Shown here: positions 3,145 through 62,095 of the stretch, in pieces
How positions within the stretch are numbered: the first letter of the stretch is position 1
Layout of the letters: every line of letters starts with the position of its first letter
Source: Eledone cirrhosa
Lineage: Eukaryota
Reading direction: 5' to 3'
Length of the DNA stretch: 64,000 nt
Assembly: GCA_964016885.1 (NCBI GenBank)
Contig: OZ024746.1
Span: 8,804,001-8,868,000 of the forward strand
Made by a program: the position numbers and the translations under genes
Notes under the pieces: generated by a model
The model's input: the letters and a program-made list of their open reading frames with translations, nothing else
What the model was told of the DNA's origin: nothing
Database searches by the model: none

Positions 3145-3842
3145 GACGTTATAGTCGCATATATGTTATAGAATGCCGTTAGCTTCTTGCTAAAACAATC
3201 TCTATACCTGTCATTTATATTTATACTCGGATTCTTTTCCTAGAGTGCTTAAACTATCTGTGACTAATCCCGGTTTTTTTCATAAAAACTGTGATAATTA
3301 TTGCTATTTTGCTGAACTCCTTTGTAGAGTTTTTTTTTCAGAATGTATTTGACTGCTATTTCTTGTAAATAAACATTCACTTCCATCCTGACGTCACTAG
3401 CACCGTTTTTTCCTCATGTGCTTTTTCATAAATACACATGAAGGCGAACTAGCCAGTTTTAGAATTCCCTTTTCGGATTATATTACTGTGAGAGCCCTGG
3501 TTTTCTGTTGAGCTCTGCTGATGAATGAAATCCAACCGTGACCATCTCCACTGAAAGTTTTCATGAAATAGTCTTTTAAGACTATACAGAGCATTTGATG
3601 TTATTCCAAATTGAAGGATAAGTGTTTCAAACTTTATTTTATCATGAGTTAAAGGTCTATAGATTTTTCCCTGGATTTCACTAAATTCTGTGGATGAATT
3701 TATATCCTGATTCTCTTTTGAGATGAGTTTGAGTTATTTTTCCTAAATCTTTCGTTAACTACTTTTCCCATCTTGACGTTATAGTCGCATATATGTTATA
3801 GAATGCCGTTAGCTTCTTGCTAAAACAATCTCTATACCTCTC

Positions 3843-3850
<8 letters not shown>
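3144..3850 (+). mobile_element. (TA)n-flanked HHR-bearing element with 77-bp terminal direct repeats (period 630)
   Basis: 3144-3220 equals 3774-3850 with 1 mismatch; internal HHR present; a homologous copy lies at 39090-39520 on the minus strand. Confidence 0.8.
3512..3592 (+). ncRNA. Type I hammerhead ribozyme, intact core
   Basis: gctctg CTGATGA atgaaa[28 nt]tttcat GAA Atagtct ttta agactaT A|cagagc. Stem I 6 bp, stem II 6 bp, stem III 7 bp, AUA cleavage triplet. Confidence 0.88.
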
Positions 3851-3880
<30 letters not shown>

Positions 3881-3982
3881 CGTTTCTGAATTTGTTTAGT
3901 AAGATTCTTTATCTGAAAACGTGTGTTGAAACCGATATTGTGTATATATATGTGTGTATATATATATGTGTGTATATATATG

Positions 3983-4096
<114 letters not shown>

Positions 4097-5967
4097 AAAC
4101 TTAAATATAACATTCCTGAGATCTCCTCAATATAAACGTAATTACAATTATCGGGATACAAAACCGTTGAGATAAACATCAGAAGACTCACAACCATGTA
4201 AGAAAATGGCTCTGTATACGATGAATTAAAGTTTGAATTGATTCAAAGACATGGAAATAGCAGTAGTTGCCTGCTTAGGTAAAAGTATTAATTCCTTGTT
4301 CACAGTTACATGCATAAATGCATAAATGTCCATAATATGGTGACCTGGTTAAATTTTAAAACATTTTGTATCTCCTGTCGTTATTTTCCGGATTCGTAAT
4401 TTCACAGGCTACGTTATTGGTTGTGGAAGAAATAAAGAACAGATAATGTCGTAACGATACAGCAATCCTAACACTTCTATCGGAAATGAACCAAAGCAAA
4501 ACTGTATATAATTTTCAGCCTTGGTGACATTTTTATACCTGTTGATTTGTTATCATGTTTGTATACAGGGTAAAGCTACGCTCGTTTGTAATTCTTCAAA
4601 GACGTTTCTCCAAGTAAACAACCATGTAATTTAAGTTTAGGGGTTTTCCTTCAACTAACCTTAAATAAATAAAACACATTCTAGATATAAGTGTTGGGAG
4701 TTCTATGTAATAAAACCGTTTGAGAATTCACTTTAGACTAAAATTCTCGTTTCTGCCACTGGGCACTAGTTTACAAAGAGACATTGCTACGAAACCAATA
4801 TTGGATTCGACTAATGCGAGCTGATACTCATTCCAAAGATATTTCCTAAGTTTGATTAACCATTGAAGATTAAACGAATTAGAAATACGTATCTGTTAAA
4901 GAACAGCTATGGAATAAGTTCACAACACATCTAAATATATTTCTAGGATAAAAGTACATAAAAACAATAAAGAATTTAATATTTTGTGAAATGTATAAAA
5001 AATAAAGTATTGGAAAGGACTAAAATTGCTATAAATGAGAGGAAAAGAGGGAAATGGCAAGGATTATTAGGGAACGAAAAAAGGAGGAAGGGGAGACGGT
5101 GACAGAATCTACACCTAAGTCAGTTTTAGTTTCTGTTCAAGATGCTAGAGCAGACAGGTCGTAATTTTGGTGTTATGTATAATTGTCTTTGTTTGGTTGC
5201 CTCTCATTCAATCAAATATGGACTAACATATTTAAATAGACATTAAAATATTCATAAATATAAAATGTTTCGAGTTAATCTTATATAACCAAAGTAATAA
5301 AATTTACATTATACATATCAACGAGAAATGTAATGTTAAAAGCCATTGTCACTAACCAGGAATAAATTAAGAAATCTATGATAAATAGAAAAGAAGCAGA
5401 GTTTGAAATACAAGAGAATTAAGGAAAGAAGGATAAACGATTCTTATTTCTATCGGTGTTTGTATCGTTAATATGTTTCGTTTCTTTTATAAGGATTATA
5501 AGTTGTAGAGGAAGAAGAATCTGGCAGGTTAATTTCCTAGAAGGATATAAAATATTAGGTTTGTATTAAATTCATTTCGTTCTTTTATTTGTGCCATTGT
5601 GTGTGTGTGTATGTAAGTGTGTGTGTATGTATGTATGTGTATGTACGTGTGTATGTGTGTATGTGTGTGTGTATGTGTGTCTGTATATGTGTGTGTGCGT
5701 GTGTTAGTATGCTGTATATGTGGCTGTACATACGTGCTCACATAAGTGCACGTGTGTCAATGTATGTTTGCTATACATTCAAACGACGGAAAATTAAAGA
5801 TAATTTGCAGCGAAGTTGTGTTTATAATGAAGCTGGAAGCAATATATAACCTAAATTGACTTTTCACGAACGAACGTTGAACAACAAAAGAGACACGCAT
5901 AAGATATTCACATATATATATTTCTGTGCCCAAATACTTATAAAAATACTCACCGACACGTGCAGTT

Positions 5968-6018
<51 letters not shown>

Positions 6019-6217
6019 AAAGTTCTATTTAAATTGTTGGGATACAACAAGCAAATATACGGGGTCGATAAAATAAAGTACCAGTAATACACTGGGTAAT
6101 TGCTGGCCTTGTGCCTAATGTAGAAATAATTATTATAACTGATATAAAGCACTCGACAAATATTTGGAGTAGATATACAATATTAATAAATGGAAACTAT
6201 ATTTATAAAACCATATT

Positions 6218-6282
6218 TATTTCATTATATATATTTCAAGGATACCAAGTTAAATCATGGCATGCCTTCATCAGACAAAATA
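6218..6282 (-). ncRNA. Type I hammerhead ribozyme (left arm of F1 hairpin)
   Basis: tattttgt CTGATGA aggcatgcca..tggtatcctt GAAA tatata TA|atgaaata, with a palindromic minimal stem III. Confidence 0.75.
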
Positions 6283-6389
6283 CAATATATAACAGTTTTA
6301 CAAATAGATATTGACGTACCCCTCCAAAAACAACGGTCACTTTTTTGAAAGGGTACGTCAATATCTATTTGTAAAACTGTTATATATTG

Positions 6390-6454
6390 TATTTTGTCTG
6401 ATGAAGACATACCATGATTTAACTTGGTATCCTTGAAATATATATAATGAAATA
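6390..6454 (+). ncRNA. Type I hammerhead ribozyme (right arm of F1 hairpin)
   Basis: tattttgt CTGATGA agacatacca..tggtatcctt GAAA tatata TA|atgaaata. Confidence 0.75.
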
Positions 6455-6508
6455 AATATGGTTTTATAAATATAGTTTCCATTTATTAATATTGTATATA
6501 TATATATA

Positions 6509-6687
6509 AAGTTTATCCCGGGTTCAATCGGGGATAACCACAGTAAATAAGGTACTCAATACATAGCAGAGTATAAATATTTAATATAAAAAGGCTTCTA
6601 CAGGACTAGAACTGTTCCATTCGGGCTTCCTGGTGATTTCCGAATGAAACAGTTCTAGTCCTGTAGAAGCCTTCTATATTAAATATA
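6509..6687. mobile_element. Penelope-like hairpin cassette (F2) with degenerate HHR at 6624-6671 (+)
   Basis: Arms 6577-6624 and 6640-6687 are inverted, with the tail on the left. HHR: ggcttc CTGGTGA tttccgaat GAAA cag ttctagtc ctg TA|gaagcc (6-bp stem I, core A>G change). Confidence 0.75.
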
Positions 6688-6701
6688 TATATATATATAT
6701 A

Positions 6702-6884
6702 TAGGAAAAGAGTCAGGACCTCGACGGCAGAGCTCACGCCGTCGGGGTCCAGAAATAGCTGTCGAAACGGCGTGAGCCCTGCCGTCAAAGTCTTGACTCT
6801 TTTCCTATTACCCACTCTACTACCCACAGTATCGAGTACTCTGGTGCCTTATGGTCCACCTGGATCCTTACCACACTTCCTTCG

Positions 6885-6886
<2 letters not shown>
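6702..6886 (+). mobile_element. Penelope-like hairpin cassette (F3) with 3' half of an HHR
   Basis: Arms 6702-6743 and 6767-6807 are inverted. GAAAcggc..gccgTC stem III present. The tail 6808-6886 is shared with 15494-15586 and 39839-40025. (TA)n on both sides. Confidence 0.8.
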
Positions 6887-6975
<89 letters not shown>

Positions 6976-7235
6976 GAAACACACAGATATATGCGGACAC
7001 ACACATATATACATGAATGCATCCGCACCCAACTGTGAGTTAAGGGTGCCAACTTCACCGATGTTGCTCAATGAATGACTGGGACAGACCAATTCAGTTT
7101 GAACCAGATTGAACCAGTATCAGAGTTAAAAATACATTATGAATACGTTATATCGCGTGACTATCTCCCCCTCCGCCTTTTGGGATTCTTTCTCACGTCG
7201 TGTAGACGCGTTCTTGAGACTAGTAAAATGAGGTA

Positions 7236-7323
7236 TCCTCTTGATAAGTTGGCAGACCTCGCAAGGACTCTATATCTTTGATATATTGTTTTTGTTTATG
7301 CCACGAAACTACGTAGTCGAGGA
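7236..7323 (+). ncRNA. Degenerate type I hammerhead ribozyme
   Basis: tcctc TTGATAA gttggca...tgccac GAAA ctacgtag TC|gagga. All three stems pair but the core has two substitutions. Confidence 0.7.
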
Positions 7324-7395
7324 ATTTAGGAGCAGTTTAGGTATGATACATTTTATTACTAATTATATCTAAATGTTTCTTCTCTCTTCATAATG

Positions 7396-7424
<29 letters not shown>

Positions 7425-7426
<2 letters not shown>

Positions 7427-7802
7427 AGAACAAAAGATGGTTAAAAGAGTTCCATGTATTTTATTATGCGCATTTCAAAAATAAACATCATCATGCAATA
7501 ATATTTGTGTTTTCATCAGATAAAACAGGAAGACATGATATGAAGGTTAAAAAACACTTGTGGATAGTGCAGTTTTAAATCAACATATGAAAAGTAGTTT
7601 TAGATTGATGTGTGATATTGGGAAAAATATTTTATTTTGGGGGTGGGTGGGTGGAAAGGATGAAATGCGCATAATAAAATACATTGAACTCTTTTAACCA
7701 TCTTTTGTTCTTATATATTATGTATACTCCAGTCCTACAAACTGTAGAGTGCTTCTTATCCGATATCTGCATTGCTTTATTGTACTACAATAAGACTCAC
7801 CT

Positions 7803-7805
<3 letters not shown>
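7425..7805. mobile_element. Penelope-like hairpin cassette (F5)
   Basis: 7425-7477 is inverted relative to 7661-7712, then a one-sided tail with TACTC...GAGTG; flanked by (TA)n. Confidence 0.8.
7458..7526 (-). ncRNA. Type I hammerhead ribozyme, intact core
   Basis: gttttat CTGATGA aaacac...gtttattttt GAAA tgcgca TA|ataaaat. Stem I 7 bp, palindromic stem III ATGCGCAT, AU-rich stem II. Confidence 0.75.
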
Positions 7806-7859
<54 letters not shown>

Positions 7860-8007
7860 ATGCTTTGGGAGGGTCATGTTGCCAATAAGAAACACACGCA
7901 CCAGTTGCTTTCACTCCAATTTATTATAAATTAAATTTATAAATTTAAGAATTTATAAATTTCCGGTTGGTTGGTTGGTTGCACAACCGGACGGTTGTTC
8001 ATATATT

Positions 8008-8050
8008 GTCAAAGTTCTTTCGTCGCACATTTTGTGACCTCTTCAGTGAC
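8008..8050 (-). ncRNA. Minimal type I hammerhead ribozyme
   Basis: gtca CTGAAGA ggtcacaaaatgtgcgac GAAA gaac TT|tgac, inside a (TA)n-bounded segment 7855-8140. Confidence 0.7.
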
Positions 8051-8407
8051 TGGGGATTCTTTTCTTTGTTTTTGTGCGTCTCCTTTGTTCTGTCCTACGC
8101 CATCTTGTTTTGTTGTGTTTGTGTGCTTAGTTTGCACACACATATATATATATATATAATATATATATATATAATATATATATATATATGTGATAAATAT
8201 AAGTATATCCCCTCTTCACTATTATTCTAGCTCAAGTTGACCAGACAGATACATTCGAATGCTCATATAGACACACATGCATATAAACACTCACTAAGCT
8301 AGATATCTACACGCACAACCACTCTCTAACCATATAACCAAATAACACTTATATGAAGAGAATTTACAATTGGATAAATAATGCATAACTTTATTTGGAC
8401 AAACCAA

Positions 8408-8497
8408 GCCCCTGATGATACAGACAGTAAACCACCAAGCTCTTCGGAAATCAGTCAAGAACTAGCTGTTGAAACGGCAACGGCTCAACCGTTGGGT
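8408..8497 (+). ncRNA. Type I hammerhead ribozyme in a pLTR-like segment (about 8190-8600)
   Basis: gccc CTGATGA tacag...ctgtt GAAA cgg caacggctcaa ccg TT|gggt. The downstream tail ACTCtactaccccaagtattGAGT is related to F3. Confidence 0.78.
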
Positions 8498-9344
8498 CCC
8501 AACCTTTTATAATATAACCATACTCTACTACCCCAAGTATTGAGTACTCTGTTTAGTAATGATTTAACCAGTTTCCAACTGATTTCCTCCTGATTTATAT
8601 ATATATTTATATATATTTATACATTTAGTTAAAGTCGTTTCATTGTTCTTACTGCGGCCTTTTCTTATATCTATGACATAGTCCAACGTATCCTTTGGTA
8701 TTTAAGACTAGGCGTTAATACAAGAATCTTTTGACTGCTATTTCTAGCAACTTTAACAACCACTTAGAGGTTCACTTGTTGTCTGGACTGTTTATATAAT
8801 TTTGTTTTCAGTCATTCTCATAACGAAATTAATAATGTATAATACACTTTAAGTAGTAAAAGAAATAGAAGAAAGAAATTGGAAAACAAAATGCTCCAGT
8901 AGCTTAAAATAAGGACTGGAAACACAAAAACAAAAAAAAAACAAAAGAAATTGAAAAACAAAAGAGAAAATAGAAACGAAGAAAATGTTTTTGAAGTTAG
9001 GATATTTACTGATGGATTAACAGCTTCTGTCGTCATCAATCAGGATAAATTTTGTTCTGAAGAAATAAATGCCATAATTAAGTCATGTAATAGTGTAAAG
9101 AGGGAATTTTCCAGTGTATTTATCAAAGTGACACATACGAATCGATCCGTAAATCTCCTTCAGTCTGACGTAAAGAAATCATTTCCGATTTTCTTATGAC
9201 CTATTTTTAAATGTGTCAGTAGCAAACCAAACATTAGTCAGAATGTTCTCGGGTTATTTGAGATGGTGAGAGCAAGAGTTATCGAAAGCTCTCAGGGTAG
9301 GAAGCTGATTGTAAATGTTCGATAGTCTGGAATGTAGTACATAA

Positions 9345-14846: not shown

Positions 14847-15457
14847 TAAGTAAGTTAATTTAAAAAAAAAAAAATTTTTAAAGAAATTTTCTTATTTTAC
14901 GTCTTATATATTATTGTTCTGCATTCTCCTGCATTGAACCACCTAGGTACTATGACATAACCTGTGTACTTGCTGGCATTAGCGTACATCTGTGCGCTTA
15001 TGTTAGTAGATATATTAAATTATCTATATTTATCTCCAAATCACTGATTTGTCGAGCAAACCTGCCAAAACCACTTCTAAAAATTTTTTTTGGGGGTGTT
15101 AGTAGGCGTCTGTCATCTTACCATCCCATTCCTACTGACTAGCCTCTGTGTCACGTGATTGATTTTTTAGAATCGGCCATATGATCAGTGGCAGTGAGAA
15201 TTTTCAGTGGCTGGAATCCAGTCCTCGATAGCTGTTCCAGTTGCCGAATTATTATTATTTTTATATGAGTCCCCAGTGTCCGCGTATCGCCTGGAGACTC
15301 GGCTGAGAATGACCTCTCTGATGACGCAATGAAATTCTCAACAGTTCATTACGTAACTGTCTTTATCCCATTGCAGAAACTAATTAGTTGGAGTGAAAAT
15401 TTAAGTAAGTTAATTTAAAAAAAAAAATTTTTTTAAAGAAATTTTCTTATTTTACGT

Positions 15458-15465
<8 letters not shown>
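14847..15465 (+). mobile_element. (TA)n-flanked HHR-bearing element with ~64-bp terminal direct repeats (period 555)
   Basis: taagtaagttaattta...ttacgtcttatata occurs at 14847 and 15402; an HHR lies just before the second copy. Confidence 0.78.
15314..15393 (+). ncRNA. Type I hammerhead ribozyme, intact core
   Basis: ctct CTGATGA c gcaatg...cattgc a GAAA ctaattag TT|ggag, with palindromic stem III ACTAATTAGT. Confidence 0.8.
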
Positions 15466-15688
<223 letters not shown>

Positions 15689-16089
15689 TAAGTCTGGTAA
15701 ACCATATTACTGTAGTTAGTATTTTTCCACCCTAGCAAACCCAGTCCTTACGATTCGAACACATGTATGTTTATATTAGTGTTCATCTCTCTCTTGTTTA
15801 TTCAATTATATTGTACGGCTCGGAAAAGCTTTTTTCTTATAGCTATTTAATTGTAAGAGACTACTCTGTGTTCTTAGCTCAATATATATATATATATATA
15901 ATGAATCAAACATATCAAATATGTTTAGAATTTTGTCTTTCTCAATAAGGACGCTCAATAGACTTTGTCTAGAGCCGTAATAACCAAATAAATAGATACA
16001 TGTATATACAGATATATGTGCAATATATGCCTCTTTCTCTCTCTGTATATACATATATCTCTTTATTTGGTTATATATGTATGTATATA

Positions 16090-17927: not shown

Positions 17928-18168
17928 GTAATAATAATAAATTTGAAGACTAAAATCCAAAGAGGGCTCGATAAGGATAAATATATATCAAATATATAAG
18001 AAACATAGAGCAAATATTTATTAAAATAACAGATTAAAGTTTAAGCAAAGAATCGCTGCTTTCACCCTTAACGGAATCTTCTCAAGATCTTCTAAAGATC
18101 TTCTCAGAACATCCGTTAAGGGTGAAGTAGCGATTCTGTGCTTAAACTTTAATCTGTTATTTTAATAA

Positions 18169-18171
<3 letters not shown>
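17928..18171. mobile_element. Penelope-like hairpin cassette (F4)
   Basis: Arms about 18013-18075 and 18113-18171 are inverted, with the tail on the left. GAAAgca..tgcTT half-HHR. A collapsed copy lies at 30134-30218. Confidence 0.8.
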
Positions 18172-18249
<78 letters not shown>

Positions 18250-18363
18250 CCTAGTCCTAACACTTTGTACTGCACTCTTCGTTTTGTTTTGTTTTTTGTT
18301 TTACTTATATATATATATATATATTTATTAAAATAACAGATTAAAGTTTAAGCAGGAAGAGGG

Positions 18364-18399
18364 TCTTAACGTTTCGGACGCTGGTTCTTCATCAGAAGA
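18364..18399 (-). ncRNA. Minimal Penelope-type hammerhead ribozyme
   Basis: tctt CTGATGA agaaccagcgtcc GAAA cg TT|aaga, with the GAAACGTT palindromic stem III and a weak stem II. Confidence 0.72.
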
Positions 18400-18472
18400 A
18401 AGAATGAGAAATAAGATCGATTGAGGGGACGGGCGAGTTGGAATTGGAAAAAAAGTGTCTTATATATATATA

Positions 18473-18770
18473 TATATAATGTGGAAAGTGATATATGTTA
18501 GAAGACTACACAATGTAAAATGGGCAACGAAAATGTTAATTATCTGGTGATTATTGGTTTTCTCGTTTCTTTCGACAAAAAAAGGATTATTAACTTTTTC
18601 GCTGCCTTCATCTTATCGTCCATTTTGCATTGTTTAGCCTTCTTACATATATCACTTTCCACATTATATATTATATACAATGCTTCACACAAACTATATT
18701 TAATATTATATACGTTTTATACATCATTCTACATGCAATTTTGTTGTGTCTGTGTATTTCGATTGTAGTT
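18473..18770. mobile_element. Diverged hairpin cassette of the same architecture
   Basis: 18473-18525 is inverted relative to 18618-18670; it starts at a (TA)n run. Confidence 0.6.
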
Positions 18771-26724: not shown

Positions 26725-26729
<5 letters not shown>

Positions 26730-26975
26730 TACAATTTCATACAAATAAAGCAGTAAATAAAGGATTATGAGTTCATGCAATTGACTTATGTTTCGTCACT
26801 ATATATATATATATAGTGACGAAACATAAGTCAATTTGTATGAAATTTGTAAATAACTCATCCAAGTATTAGAACAGGGGGAAATAACTCACCGAACGCG
26901 ATAGTAAATAGACGGTTTTGGGATGCCAGGAACCACATTTTTCAAGTTAGAGATTTGAACCTCGTCTATTTACTT
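26725..26975. mobile_element. Nested hairpin cassette remnants with half-HHR
   Basis: aattgacttatgtttcgtcact(AT)n agtgacGAAAcataaGTCaatt, plus outer and downstream inverted pairs. Confidence 0.6.
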
Positions 26976-39089: not shown

Positions 39090-39094
<5 letters not shown>

Positions 39095-39520
39095 GAAAGG
39101 TATAGAGGTTGTTTTAACGAGAAGCTAATAGTATTCTATAACATATACGCGACTATATCGTCAAGATGGGAAAAGTAGTTAACGTAAGATTTAGGAAAAA
39201 TAATTCAAACTCATCTCAAAAGAGAATCAGGATACAAATTCATCCACAGAATTTAGTGAAATCCAGGGAAAAATCAATAGACCTTTAACTCATGATAAAA
39301 TAAAGTTTAAAACACTTATCCTTCAATTTGGAATAATATCAAATGCTCTGTATAGTCTTAAAAGACTATTTCATGAAAACTTTCAGTGGAGATGGTCACG
39401 GTTGGATTTCAATCGTCAGCAGAGCTCAACAGATAACGAGGGCTACCACAGTATTATAAGCCGAAAAGGGAATTATAAAACTGGCTAGTTCGCCATCATG
39501 CGTGATTATGAAAACGCACA
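39090..39520 (-). mobile_element. Second copy of the 3144-3850 family, with HHR at 39345-39425
   Basis: Aligns to about 3416-3848. HHR gctctg CTGACGA ttgaaa..tttcat GAAA tagtcttttaagacta TA|cagagc; ends at the same nucleotide in (TA)n. Confidence 0.88.
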
Positions 39521-39696
39521 TATATATATATATGGAAAAGAATGAAATGAAATTTCATTTCTCACTCTTAGTACGGCTGATACTCAAATACAAGTATGTA
39601 TGCGTACATACATATATGTATACAGACGTACAGTAGTATGCATATATATACATACATGCAGACATATATATATATATATATATATATACACGTATG

Positions 39697-39779
39697 GGTT
39701 TACCGAACATTATATTTAAAATATTCGGCCTGTTTGTAAACAAACAGCCCGAATTAAGCTGTATAGTGTTCGGCAACCA
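39697..39779. mobile_element. Possible small MITE
   Basis: ggtttaccgaacattata and tatagtgttcggcaacc are imperfect inverted ends. Confidence 0.45.
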
Positions 39780-39784
39780 TCGCG

Positions 39785-39838
<54 letters not shown>

Positions 39839-39842
<4 letters not shown>

Positions 39843-40023
39843 AACCAGTAAGACCCCGACAGCTGAGCTCAAGCCGTTTCGACGGCTAATTCTCATTAGC
39901 CGTCGAAACGGCTTGAGCTCAGCTGTCGGGGTCTTACTGGTTCCTATTACCCACTCTACTACCTCAAGTATTGAGTACTTTGGTGCGTTATGGTCCACCT
40001 GGTTCCTTACCACATTTCCTTCG

Positions 40024-40025
<2 letters not shown>
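39839..40025 (+). mobile_element. F3 hairpin cassette with perfect ~53-bp arms, 4-nt loop and tail
   Basis: taggaacc...ggctaat tctc attagcc...ggttccta, then the tail; half-HHR GAAAcggc..gctgTC|gggg. Confidence 0.88.
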
Positions 40026-40066
<41 letters not shown>

Positions 40067-40276
40067 TGCATATATATATATACATATATGTATATATATG
40101 TATATACCGTATGTTTCATTAAAAACATTTTGAAGACTTTGCGCTATTATTTTGAAAGTAGTGACTCTGTCACTTAATTCTTTTTTCGGCAAAGGAAGGG
40201 AGAGGAGCTGACAGCGGGGAGTACGTTGCTCTGAGGTTGACATACAGTGTGAAACAGAATTTGTTAGCTTCTCTCC

Positions 40277-40329
40277 CTGCCTGAAGAGGTCACAGCCAAT
40301 AATAGCTGTCACCGAAATATATATAGCAG
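40277..40329 (+). ncRNA. Type I hammerhead ribozyme, intact core
   Basis: ctgc CTGAAGA ggtcacagc caataata gctgtcacc GAAA tatata TA|gcag, with a canonical G-C pair opening stem II. Confidence 0.85.
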
Positions 40330-40451
40330 AGAATGTATAATTTATAATAAACGAAGCCATATTTTACATTACTCCGGAGTAAACAAACCAACCTGTGTAC
40401 TTCGTCGAGTGCTTCAATCTGCATATTGAGATGTTGGTAAACAACCAACAT

Positions 40452-40591
<140 letters not shown>

Positions 40592-40661
40592 ATATATATA
40601 CTCTTTCACGTCGAGGTTTATATTTTTCTTGGTGCAATTCTTCCCGCTTATATATATATAC

Positions 40662-40696
<35 letters not shown>

Positions 40697-40697
40697 C

Positions 40698-40770
<73 letters not shown>

Positions 40771-40788
40771 TATATACATATATATATG

Positions 40789-40840
<52 letters not shown>

Positions 40841-40847
40841 CATATAC

Positions 40848-40878
<31 letters not shown>

Positions 40879-40879
<1 letters not shown>

Positions 40880-41080
40880 TGGTAAACGGAATAGAAAATG
40901 CTAACAAATTGTTCACAGTTGAAAAATGGTTTAATTAGGAATAAAAGAGTATTAGTGATTGTATGGGTTAGTATTCAGTTGTGGTTTTAAGTTTTTAAGC
41001 TTTTACCGGTTGCGCATTTCTAAATGCTTTTCAAAAATAATTTTGAGATAGAGTGTCCGTGCTGTTTGCTCTGATCTGAT
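40879..41080. repeat. Dispersed (TA)n-adjacent repeat, second copy at 61907-62096
   Basis: The two segments align over about 190 bp; the minus strand has GAAAtgcgca, which may be a truncated pLTR. Confidence 0.75.
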
Positions 41081-43152
41081 TACAATATATTAATAAATGG
41101 AAACTATCTTTATAAAACCATATTTATTTTATTATATATATTTCAAGGGCAACCAAGGCAAATTATGGTGCGCTTTCATCAGATAAAATACAGAATTTTT
41201 TATAAATAAATATTGACATACCCGGAAAAAAAAGACAACCTTAACGGTTGGAGCTTCCTGGATAGTGCAGTACATTTATTGAGGGTGATACAAAGTTATG
41301 AGTGAGTATGCAAATGAGTGTCCGAAAGGTTGAAAAGATAACGGTTTATTTAAATTAAACTGTTGGAAGAAGATGATATGTAAGGGAGAGCGAAAAAAAT
41401 AGAAAAAAGAAAAAAAGAAAAAAGAAAAAAAAGGAGAAAGATAGAAGAGGAAAGAAAGAACGATTATATATATTGATAATGAAAATAGAGTGCATGAAGA
41501 GATAAATATAAACAGCCTAAGTATATCTAAAAGGGAGAAGAAATGATAATAATGTGAAAGAATAATATTTATAATGCAGGATTCATTACGTTTTGATTAT
41601 AATACTTATAATGATAGGTTGAAAAATTAGTTTAAAATTAAATTAAAATTAAAAATTAGAAATCAAAATTAAAGATTAAAATTTACCTTAATATTAAAGA
41701 TTTAATATAATAATTTAATATTAATAATTAGTTTAAATATTAAGGATTATAAATTATTTAAATAAATATATAGTATTTTACATTAGAGCAAATCTAGTAT
41801 AGTTTATTTTATTAAAAGTTGTAAGTCAAAATTTAAACATCCAAATAATTCTAAATTTATGAAAAATTTACGAGAGTTTACAAAAGAATAACCACTTAGT
41901 TATATTATAAAAACAGTAAGGAAGTGTAAAGGAAGTTAGAAGTGATTTTTTAAGAACTCAGATGACTCTAAGGATTAAATGTTATAAAGTTAAACAGTTA
42001 AACATTTTTTATCTTAAGAATATAATTAAAACATGAACCATGTGTTATTTCATACGAAGTCATAAATTTACTTGCTATAAAGTTAAAACATTAACATTAA
42101 AATCAAAACATTAAAAAAATTTATCTTAAGAATATATTTAAAGCATAAACCATAGGTTATTCCACATATATATAAAAAACCTATATATAAAAATCATATG
42201 TTTTTCCACATATATATAAACATTTGGATATATATATTAAAAACGTTTGAAGATATAAAAAATATAAAAATATAAAAATATTGGAAGTTATGAAAATAAT
42301 GGTTTTCCTATATCATTCAAAGGAATTTTCAAAAGATTTTTCATAAAACCTTCCGTAAGTTTTTCAATAAAAATTTTTTTCTTAAAGGAGTTTCAAGCAG
42401 TCATATAAAATTTTTTTTATAATCTATCGATAGGTGTAATAATTTTAAGTATATAGTATATATATGTGAAGTAAAGATATGAATCATATATAGATATAGA
42501 AGACATTATGTAAAAGAGATAAGTCATATATTACATTTTATATATATATTTAAAAGTTGAATTTAAACGATGTTTGCAGGACTGAATAAATTATTTCGCA
42601 AATTAATAGAGTTCTTACTTTTTAGTATAAAGAATATTTCTTCAACACAAAGAGAACAATTTTGGGATAAAGCAGTGTATGAAGGAGCTTTGGAAATAAT
42701 TTTCCAAAGTAAAGAATAGTTAATATTCTTGGATTTCAGGTCCGATAATAAGTTAGATAGAAAAGTTGAAGATTTTTTACCAATATTCGTAAAGGTACAT
42801 TTATGGTTATTAAAACGAGATATGAAGTCAGTGGAAGTAGAGCCGACATAGTTAAAGGAGTTTTCATTTGTTTTGACATTACAATTGTATACTATCTCCA
42901 CTATCCAGGAAGCTCCAACCGTTAAGGTAGTCTTTTTTCCGGGTATGTCAATATTTATTTATAAAACAAATCTGTATTTTATCTGATGAAAGCGCACCAT
43001 AATTTGCCTTGGTTGCCCTTGAAATATGTATAATAAAATAAATATGGTTTTATAAATATAGTTTCTATTTATTAATATATTGTATATTTACTCCACTAAA
43101 TTGTTGAGTGCTTTTTATCAGTTATAACAAATTTTAAATTAAATATAACCTC

Positions 43153-43156
<4 letters not shown>
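41081..43156 (-). mobile_element. 5'-truncated Penelope-like retroelement (Naiad-type) with inverted pseudo-LTRs
   Basis: ~186-bp inverted arms at 41081-41267 and 42899-43084, each with an HHR (41125-41190 on -, 42975-43040 on +; 8-bp stem I tattttat/ataaaata). Tail 43085-43156. Internal GIY-YIG remnant and AT-rich UTR. Confidence 0.85.
42550..42901 (-). pseudogene. GIY-YIG endonuclease domain of a Penelope-like element
   Basis: IVY..YVGST..F..RF.NHK..F..ST.LS...LK...W.I....SY......CSLC.EE...N.R, and CKHR after a frameshift. The CxxC...CxH extension is typical of Naiad-type endonucleases as I recall. Confidence 0.88.
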
Positions 43157-46094: not shown

Positions 46095-46866
46095 TGAGAA
46101 AAAGGCTACAGAAGGCATGCCAATGGCTGCGCAAGAGCAGGGCCTCAGAACGAAGTGGGTTTAACACCATATTTACAGGGAAGAGGCTAGCCCACTGTGT
46201 AGGATCTGTGGAGAGAGAGAGGAGACTGTGGCTTACATTGTATCCGAGTGTAAACATTTAGCCCAGACTCACTATAAAAGCTGGAGACATGATGTGATGG
46301 GCAGGGTGATCCACTGGCACCTATGCAAAGTAAACAATTTACCACATTCTGAGAAGTGATATGAGCATAAGCCAGAGTCGGTGATAGAAAACGATCAGGT
46401 GCTATGGGACTTTAGGATACAGACGGACAAAAAATTAGAACACAATAGGCCTGACCTGGTGCTTTTGGACAAGGAAAAAAGATCGTGCCTGATTATAGAT
46501 GAAGCCAGCCCATTTGAAACAAGAGTGCAAGAAAAGGAGAGGGAGAAAATTAACCGATACCAGGACTTAAAGTGGGAAGTAAAAAGGATTTGGAACTGCC
46601 ATGAAGTCAGGGTCATCCCGATTGTCATAGGCGCACTAGGTACTATCTCAAAGAATTTCCAAGGATGGTTAAAGAAGATTAGTCCAGCCCCGCTTTTGGG
46701 AACATTTCAAAAGGCATGCTTGCTGGGAACAGCAAGAACCCTCCGATACGTCCTGAATATCTGAGGCTACAGGTAGCGGCTTGATATTCATTTCAACAAA
46801 CTTTCCAGTTAAATAACATCAATGACTGAGACTCAAAGAATAAAAATAATAATAATAATAATAATA

Positions 46867-47598: not shown

Positions 47599-47865
47599 TG
47601 TATCATGGATTACGTTACTGATTACATAAGAGAATGTAACACAGTCTTCGTTCAATTTCTGTGTATATTGTCAATTACGATTTTATTTGATGTATCATAT
47701 CTACATGCATATATACTTGATATATACTATATTGATATTATACACAAGTATATATGCATGTAGATATGATACATCAAATAAAATCGTAATTGACAATATA
47801 CACAGAAATTGAACGAAGACTGTGTTACACTCTCTTATGTAATCAGTAACGTAATCCATGATACA
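47599..47865. repeat. Long inverted repeat, ~120-bp arms
   Basis: 47599-47718 versus 47746-47865, one mismatch seen, AT-rich spacer. Confidence 0.92.
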
Positions 47866-61832: not shown

Positions 61833-61910
<78 letters not shown>

Positions 61911-62095
61911 TAAAAGGAAAAGAAAATGCTGACAAATTGTTCCCAGTGAAAAATAGTTTAATTAGGAATAAGTAAAACTTAGTAATAGTATTGGTTAGTA
62001 TTCAGTTTTGGTTTTAAGTTTTACCGGTTGCGCATTTCTAATGCTTTTCAAAAATAATTTTGAGATATAGCGCCCGTGATGTTTGCTCTAATCTG

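Follow-up and report, generated by a model that had tools for sequence, protein, structure and literature searches.

Probable serial insertion of Penelope-like retroelement ends into a single TA microsatellite, and a paired stem-loop that may position those ends

How do hammerhead ribozyme motifs of several kinds come to lie side by side between runs of TA? The question is raised by a 64-kb window of Eledone cirrhosa DNA (the window being the whole stretch of 64,000 nucleotides analysed here), in which positions 5970-8606, 2637 bases in all, are filled for 2569 bases by seven modules and their TA tracts, the modules alone taking 2263. The initial annotation had described 6133-8600 as a pile of seven different hammerhead cassettes, mostly separated by (TA)n runs, and this succession of seven modules with TA between most of them is seen in the layout below. 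The stretch itself is real, with module boundaries wider than those first proposed: F1 starts at 6016 and the 7236 module at 7023; the 8408 module extends leftwards to about 8250-8340, beyond its earlier span. The reading that I hold to be very probable is that the seven modules are 3' ends of Penelope-like retroelements (PLEs), mostly of the Hydra clade, together with non-coding derivatives, inserted serially into one microsatellite. The features of the stack are as follows.

5970..6015: (TA)n tract at the left border of the stack
6016..6502: F1, two putative element ends joined head to head (arms 6170-6330 and 6342-6502)
6058..6136: piece of about 75 bp of another high-copy repeat, nested in the F1 tail
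6149..6170, minus strand: bulged stem-loop (SL1) of F1
6226..6274, minus strand: type I hammerhead core of the F1 left arm, with short palindromic stem III and AUA triplet
6398..6446, plus strand: type I hammerhead core of the F1 right arm, with a weaker stem II
6509..6682: F2, hairpin with its tail at the left; SL1 at 6572-6552 (minus), hammerhead at 6630-6665 (plus)
6704..6885, plus strand: F3, hairpin of a hammerhead 3' half; GAAA at 6764, SL1 at 6814-6839, 46-nt tail
6886..6972: (TA)43 tract
7023..7398, plus strand: 7236 module, inverted piece 7023-7140 and piece 7146-7398; hammerhead at 7241-7318
7427..7804: F5, long tail-less copy (minus; hammerhead at 7519-7465) joined to a short tailed copy (plus)
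7856..8135, minus strand: 8008 module, single end; hammerhead at 8046-8012, with weak stems
8250..8595 (left edge approximate), plus strand: 8408 module, 5'-truncated single end; hammerhead at 8412-8493

The abundance of hammerhead motifs in the window, as claimed at the outset, exceeds chance. An exact core with three stems was found nine times, where 10 block shuffles gave 0.1 on average, and 11 hammerheads were found against 0.5 when two core changes were allowed. These calls rest on custom motif scans and shuffles, not on Rfam models: an Rfam scan of the whole window gave no hammerhead and one match, a tRNA, and none of the 41 weak Rfam matches in 5900-8700 is a hammerhead. Full CUGANGA and GAAA boxes with stems are present on both strands of F1 (6398 plus and 6274 minus), the hairpin for which two ribozymes had been announced, and in F5 (7519 minus), the 8008 module (8046 minus) and the 8408 module (8412 plus). 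The 7236 module (7241 plus) has a U3-A8 covariant core, which is common to contigs of three sequencing runs since the 1-2 places at which these contigs depart from the window lie elsewhere. F2, read by hand, has its core altered by A6G and its stem II collapsed (6630 plus), and other F2-like contigs have CTGATGA at the mutated position. In F3, neither strand has the 5' core box, and only the GAAA/stem III/GUC half is retained. Both core boxes are thus found in six of the seven modules (one mutated, one U3-A8), F3 being truncated inside the hammerhead; and since F3 is about 70% like the 8408 module along 178 aligned nt, the seven different cassettes reduce to about six families.

Two further modules depart from the standard core. 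The 8008 module likely has an extra base after A9; its contig depth is high, and a variant at 8025 that restores stem II occurs among the contigs. The 8408 hammerhead has U.U at 10.1/11.1 and GUU, and the U.U pair, shared with F2, recurs in 20 of 51 Hydra-type hammerheads from public contigs. When folded alone, most of the hammerhead stretches are predicted not to adopt the full three-way fold at minimum energy, while F1 and F2 folded in context give long predicted duplexes, in which the hammerheads inside the hairpins would be locked. The putative ribozymes would be passengers, or cargo, of the element ends.

Four of the seven modules are near-perfect hairpins. In F1, F2, F3 and F5, an inverted 5'-truncated copy has a tail at one end only, and inverted, one-tailed copies also occur outside the stack, at 39841, 41081 and 15975. 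The arms of F1 are 161 nt long and 97% identical (4 mismatches in 157); the left arm, minus-sense, has the stem-loop and the tail and the right arm is tail-less. In F5, the short copy has SL1 at 7726-7752 and a 52-nt tail on the plus strand; the 8408 module has SL1 at 8522-8547 and a 48-nt tail, and its summed contig depth climbs from 267 through 3084 to 104610 towards the 3' end. Arm mismatches differ between the hairpins (4/157, 2/47, 4/40 and 1/56), which, the counts being small, is in line with different hairpin ages. The repeat nested in the F1 tail has 18 near-full copies in the window, and in contigs of other F1 copies 6052-6059 is followed directly by 6129-6135, without the insert; the piece entered the tail later than F1 itself.

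Inverted arms flanked by TA might also suggest MITE-like foldback DNA transposons, since TA-targeting DNA transposons exist (as stated in the part of PMC4486113 consulted). I regard this as very improbable. Symmetric terminal inverted repeats of fixed length are not what the hairpins display: the arm ends are asymmetric, the tail is single and arm length varies among copies. Type I hammerheads lie inside, depth follows a gradient of 5' truncation, and the arms of the F1 family enclose a PLE endonuclease remnant, which is found in a longer insertion of the same window.

41081..43155, minus strand: longer F1-family insertion with inverted ends (190-nt arms, 95%)
42563..42904, minus strand: putative C-terminal GIY-YIG endonuclease remnant of Hydra-clade type (Pfam GIY-YIG, E 0.0075)

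F1 is 81-83% like both ends of this 2-kb element, and the frame 42563-42958 inside it gives a weak GIY-YIG match, which at E 0.0075 is below the Pfam cut-off. A HMMER search with the remnant gave 2180 relatives, and among the best 150 of these 2180, CxxC..E is present in 148 and CxH in 107. The remnant itself has CxxC..E followed by a stop, its own CxH end having decayed. Among the six relatives of at least 300 aa, YRDD lies upstream in three and DKT in one, a CxCx5C linker lies next to the endonuclease in five (the sixth also matches the pattern), and the 696-aa relative P0103 has DKT, YRDD and the linker together. Reverse transcriptase (RT) motifs are absent from the window copy at 41081-43155, which is 5'-truncated. 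The motifs of the relatives (CxxC..E, CxH, YRDD/DKT) are Hydra-clade marks, as laid out in the portions of Craig 2021 (PMC8557442) consulted here. There, the clade is characterized by a C-terminal GIY-YIG domain with CxxC before a conserved E, to which CxH, the CxCx5C linker and DKT of the relatives correspond; by a canonical hammerhead at the 3' end, whose stem II often has U.U at its base; and by (TA)n targets and inverted 5'-truncated copies. What differs here is that mostly ORF-less ends of 90-500 nt, of about six families, make up one stack.

On these sequence grounds, the F1 family is assigned to the ends of a Hydra-clade PLE. A protein remnant ties F1 alone to such an element; the other families are assigned to the element type by anatomy, and the 7236 and 8008 modules, which lack the strict stem-loop described below, may belong to another TA-seeking clade. 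Naiad membership was ruled out, as the endonuclease of the long relatives is C-terminal and hammerheads are present, and a Neptune-type reading of the F1 element was replaced by the Hydra clade. A search by word index for longer proteins bearing the remnant yielded none among 638 candidates, Pfam gave no useful family for eight relatives, and no relative was found in viral contigs.

The proposal that separate families inserted independently at (TA)n draws on TA association and on differing neighbours and depths. All 16 hammerhead anchors, representing 14 insertions, have a TA run at most 328 nt downstream, as against 30% of random positions, so that the predicted enrichment of TA flanks over random placement holds in the window; the placement of two anchors is off by a few bases, without effect on the result. 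Outside the main stack the figure is 8 of 8. A control repeat shows the opposite: a TA run lies 100 nt away or less in 2 of its 18 copies, as compared with 24% of random positions. Module ends fall at TA in 32 of 36 cases, a count that is partly circular because some ends were set at TA edges, and the independent test of TA association is that made with the 16 anchors.

Neighbours differ from place to place: F3 recurs at 15496-15585 and 39841-40024, flanked in both places by TA runs and with other neighbours, and F1 at 41081. No neighbour pair of modules recurs within the 64-kb window, the 2.5-kb block has no second copy there, and none of the contig pieces listed spans the stack. In the best-matching run, contig depth is about 13 on the unique flanks and 5e4-1e6 on the modules, values which are summed contig depths and not copy numbers. 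The ratios between modules shift from run to run (in organism C, 27085 for F2, 15218 for the 8008 module and 96 for F1), and the unique flanks have no coverage at 85% likeness in the runs of organisms B and C. From family counts made in one 64-kb window and by contig depth, the modules appear to be independent high-copy families.

The same observations bear on the idea that the block is a single composite element, or a functional ribozyme cluster kept by the host. Dense packing and the core boxes kept by six modules would agree with it. I nevertheless consider it most unlikely, given the lack of recurrence in the window, the gap in depth between modules and flanks, the variation of module depth from run to run, the mixed orientations, the half ribozyme, the core mutation and the nested insertion. 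A side issue concerns the 7236 family, whose contig records 12, 20 and 25 show 1-2 differences from the window: horizontal transfer, suggested by 99% identity across organisms A, B and C, was set aside because the B:A depth ratios are nearly flat from module to module, which also fits a trace of A's DNA.

Serial insertion into one microsatellite being the preferred reading, the next question is what would bring successive insertions to the same place. The clustering was assessed by cutting out 17 modules and merging TA tracts at most 100 nt apart into one site; seven of the 17 then share one merged TA site (4 + 3 at 12 nt). The initial annotation had proposed that leftover TA tracts serve as targets for further families. 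In its simplest form, target regeneration alone, every insertion splits a TA tract in two and feedback builds the stack. Pair counts gave P of at most 0.0001 under equal use of TA sites, 0.002-0.010 with weighting by present TA length, 0.001-0.017 for an urn with one new target per insertion and 0.06-0.16, a fit, for an urn with three, all of these values being too small by an unknown factor because the locus was picked for being extreme. The proposal therefore stands in part, a three-target urn fitting the clustering and a one-target urn falling short of it, and site re-use is probably not the whole story, since clustering goes beyond simple regeneration.

Regeneration alone does have points in its favour. 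The TA tracts flanking modules are no shorter than the rest (median 34 versus 20.5 nt, P 0.033), and stacks of this kind occur elsewhere: in a comparison with 101 loci related to the endonuclease, taken from public contigs, unlike hammerheads within 700 nt of each other with TA between them were found in 4 of 67 hammerhead-bearing loci, three of the four coming from one assembly, with locus L096 reaching six hammerheads. Such stacking is not peculiar to this host. Set against the pair counts for the one-target urn and for length weighting, obtained at a locus flagged as extreme, these points leave regeneration alone possible but rather doubtful. Extra local attraction, whereby earlier insertions raise the rate more than twofold or the region simply tolerates insertions, is a serious possibility that I hold tentatively. 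The three-target urn fits it, four of the seven modules are near-perfect hairpins, and TATA-like words stand at the modules' own ends. Long TA tracts beside perfect hairpins are likely to be prone to breakage or cruciform extrusion. Two smaller stacks had also been announced in the window, and both are present: 17928-18460 holds two hammerheads of a single family, one of them complete and the other a half, and 39092-43156 holds four hammerhead-family insertions.

Besides the hammerhead, five of the seven modules (F1, F2, F3, F5 and the 8408 module) share a bulged stem-loop made of a 4-bp outer and a 3-bp inner stem with a 2-nt 3' bulge, situated 43-52 nt before the TA run (in F1, after discounting its insert). 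A descriptor of this structure gave 18 matches in the window, compared with 4.3 +/- 1.9 in 60 shuffles; nine of them are in modules, including that at 15975, and the remaining nine could not be linked to any. In its strict form it has no match in the 7236 and 8008 modules. The public loci, of which those labelled bacterial are presumably animal DNA in bins, provided an outside comparison. Seven of the 101 were left out of the hammerhead-distance test, their match being partial or not reaching the endonuclease end; of the remaining 94, 60 have a downstream hammerhead, and 51 of these have room after it. In 22 of these 51 eligible loci (one a duplicate), the strict motif follows the hammerhead at 28-61 nt, against 1 in antisense, 0.22 in shuffles and 3 of 469 ORF windows. 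Many of the 29 eligible loci that lack it end at TA earlier or have a looser form, as judged by eye.

Covariation in the stem was examined at sites chosen by their outer letters only. In 60 of the 101 loci there are 93 distinct matches (116 sense, 16 antisense). Inner-stem pairing is 91, 71 and 63%, compared with 67, 41 and 41% when partners are shuffled, and is seen only with the 2-nt bulge; all four Watson-Crick types occur at two inner-stem positions, in a test that is inflated by the relatedness of the sequences. In 28 hand-picked rows, whose choice leans towards structure, pairing is 100% and five of the seven pairs show double changes; of the two tests, that on sites chosen by outer letters is the fair one. 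By eye, the six consensuses of Craig File S7 (PMC8557442), among the parts consulted, have the full motif in three, a partial one in two and none in the octopus one.

The stem-loop often comes as a pair. Two copies lie 35-58 nt apart in 29 cases, all other gaps between neighbours exceeding 660 nt, and the second copy precedes the start codon by 16-40 nt in the 20 cases in which an ORF followed. Insertion ends were placed relative to these copies. Tailed ends, compared with a two-copy reference, stop 4 nt before the second copy in four of six cases, the others stopping at 22 and 27 nt. In a second end test, in which one end repeats the first list and several outliers are alignment artefacts, 11 of 15 ends lie 1-8 nt before the stem-loop and the other four at 13-20 nt. 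Tail-less arms stop 2, 4, 4, 4, 5, 5, 5 and 7 nt before the first copy in eight of the ten window modules tested; the tail-less end of F2 was missed through an indel and lies at 4 nt by eye, and the 8408 module is without a partner arm. Most placeable insertion ends are thus about 4-5 nt before one of the two stem-loop copies, and the pair likely explains the Penelope tail.

These observations can be put together in a mechanism, of which cutting, priming position, two-sided priming, head-to-head joining and site re-use are all deduced. The GIY-YIG endonuclease of the element would cut (TA)n, and the cut DNA would prime reverse transcription inside the RNA, about 4-5 nt before the bulged stem-loop, perhaps with the help of a short TA-like word before the stem-loop that may pair with the target. 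Because full elements have two stem-loops, both tail-less and tailed ends would arise: a start before the first would leave a tail-less end, and a start before the second an end with the 35-58-nt spacer, that is, the tail. Both sides of the break would be primed and two 5'-truncated copies would join head to head, giving the one-tailed hairpins (F1, F2, F3, F5), or else a single end would be left (8008 and 8408 modules). As TA would remain on both sides of the insertion, the site could be hit again. On balance, and with modest confidence, I favour a joint reading in which a two-copy RNA address in the 5' UTR of Hydra-clade elements (7-bp stem, 2-nt 3' bulge, 35-58 nt apart) sets RT starts about 4 nt upstream, the tail being the spacer, a dimeric enzyme primes both sides, and any short RNA with the signal rides into TA, which builds stacks. 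Instead of setting the RT start, the stem-loop could be read as single-stranded DNA by the endonuclease; it could also serve translation or transcription, because the motif sits in the 5' UTR.

One-sided tails and internal starts have precedents. In the portions consulted, Craig 2021 (PMC8557442) reports inverted 5'-truncated PLE copies with the tail at one side and ascribes the tail to resolution by the endonuclease. Frangieh 2024 (PMC11167929), in the part consulted, describes for Anolis Poseidon, one element of another clade, that in vitro two internal starts enclose the tail and both strands are extended. Two starts bracketing the tail and AT-rich targets are common to Poseidon and to the present elements, and the Poseidon hammerhead is dispensable in vitro. 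The Poseidon starts, however, lie in an AC-rich stem-loop within the ORF, without homology to the target, whereas those mapped here lie before two copies of one 5' UTR stem-loop, at a TA-like word.

The single ingredients (hammerheads, (TA)n targets, inverted copies) are already known, and the stack follows from Hydra-clade habits; hammerheads, (TA)n targets and an Octopus bimaculoides family are given for this clade in the portions consulted of Craig 2021 (PMC8557442). Those portions do not mention a paired stem-loop at a fixed distance from insertion ends, nor do the parts consulted of PMC13282606 and PMC7229834 mention multi-family stacks or the paired stem-loop. In the largely open-access literature searched, neither paired stem-loop nor multi-family stacks are described, and the pair as an end-setting signal is apparently undescribed. 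The stack shows how a single microsatellite can become, through TA-seeking retroelements, a 2.6-kb heap of hairpins, which annotation may file as SINEs, MITEs or unknown repeats. The larger value lies in the stem-loop pair, which bears on start-site choice and the one-sided tail of PLEs. A signal of this kind, short, covarying and clade-wide and keeping a fixed distance to the two ends, can be probed with a few point mutants, and it offers a non-coding marker by which ORF-less repeats can be assigned to the Hydra clade.

The modules also compare with known families of small hammerheads. Those of metazoan PLEs (Cervera and de la Pena 2014, PMC4209133, in the part consulted) have low activity in vitro and, like those found here, are of type I with a palindromic helix III, U3-A8 and an extra base after A9, occurring as opposite-strand pairs 100-700 bp apart and mostly as solitary truncated copies; stems I and II are longer in several of the present modules. 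Non-LTR retrozymes (Cervera and de la Pena 2020, PMC7229834; Li et al. 2026, 10.64898/2026.07.22.740005; both as far as consulted) are likewise non-coding type I hammerhead units derived from PLE pseudo-LTRs. They form head-to-tail arrays of one 150-450-bp unit, whereas the stack contains no head-to-tail hammerhead repeats of one unit and has mixed families and orientations with TA between. Closer to retrozymes are the units at 3145-3845 and 14849-15459 of the window and the 7236 family, whose unit, as suggested by contig coordinates only, would be a tandem of about 590 nt.

Hammerheads stacked with TA runs between them are found in two public loci related to the Hydra-clade GIY-YIG endonuclease, where six (L096, 3639-4987) and four (L094, 1214-2490) of them adjoin a Hydra-type ORF; both contigs are labelled bacterial. 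At 3870-3941 of a third such locus, L083, two families meet in opposite orientations with a short TA run between them: one by its tailed end, in which a spacer separates the stem-loop from the TA run, the other by its tail-less end.

Two non-coding hammerhead units of the window carry direct end repeats and have TA runs on both sides:
3145-3845, unit of about 630 nt, 71-nt end repeats
14849-15459, unit of about 555 nt, 57-nt end repeats
These units are retrozyme-like, resembling retrozyme monomers. In both, the first end repeat is followed by 4 nt and then by the stem-loop, the bulged motif common to five of the seven stack modules, and at 14916, in the second unit, the outer stem of this motif contains compensatory changes. 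The first unit has a 93% copy at 39092-39519.

The family of the 7236 module (7023-7398) is, in their contigs, about 99% identical between the three organisms A, B and C, whereas the pieces listed for the other module families differ by about 10%. Such identity may reflect recent spread or trace contamination.

Outside the stack, further hairpins were recorded:
15901-16083 (-), additional module picked up by the stem-loop descriptor, 50-nt tail reaching TA
18479-18664, hairpin with 45-nt arms, placed after a TA run
26726-26860, decayed hairpin, short TA run at its centre, hammerhead core with one mismatch on the - strand
47599-47865, near-perfect hairpin (268 nt, 95%), without TA-run flanks
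No hammerhead core was seen in the first, and neither a clear core nor a stem-loop was found in the second; the last is possibly a MITE.

A 190-nt repeat, in which no hammerhead was found, adjoins TA tracts in both its copies (40880-41078 and 61908-62095, 84% alike). One further feature may be coding:
46360-46764 (+), open frame
It has no Pfam match and resembles the restriction-like endonuclease at the C terminus of an R2/R4-type LINE.
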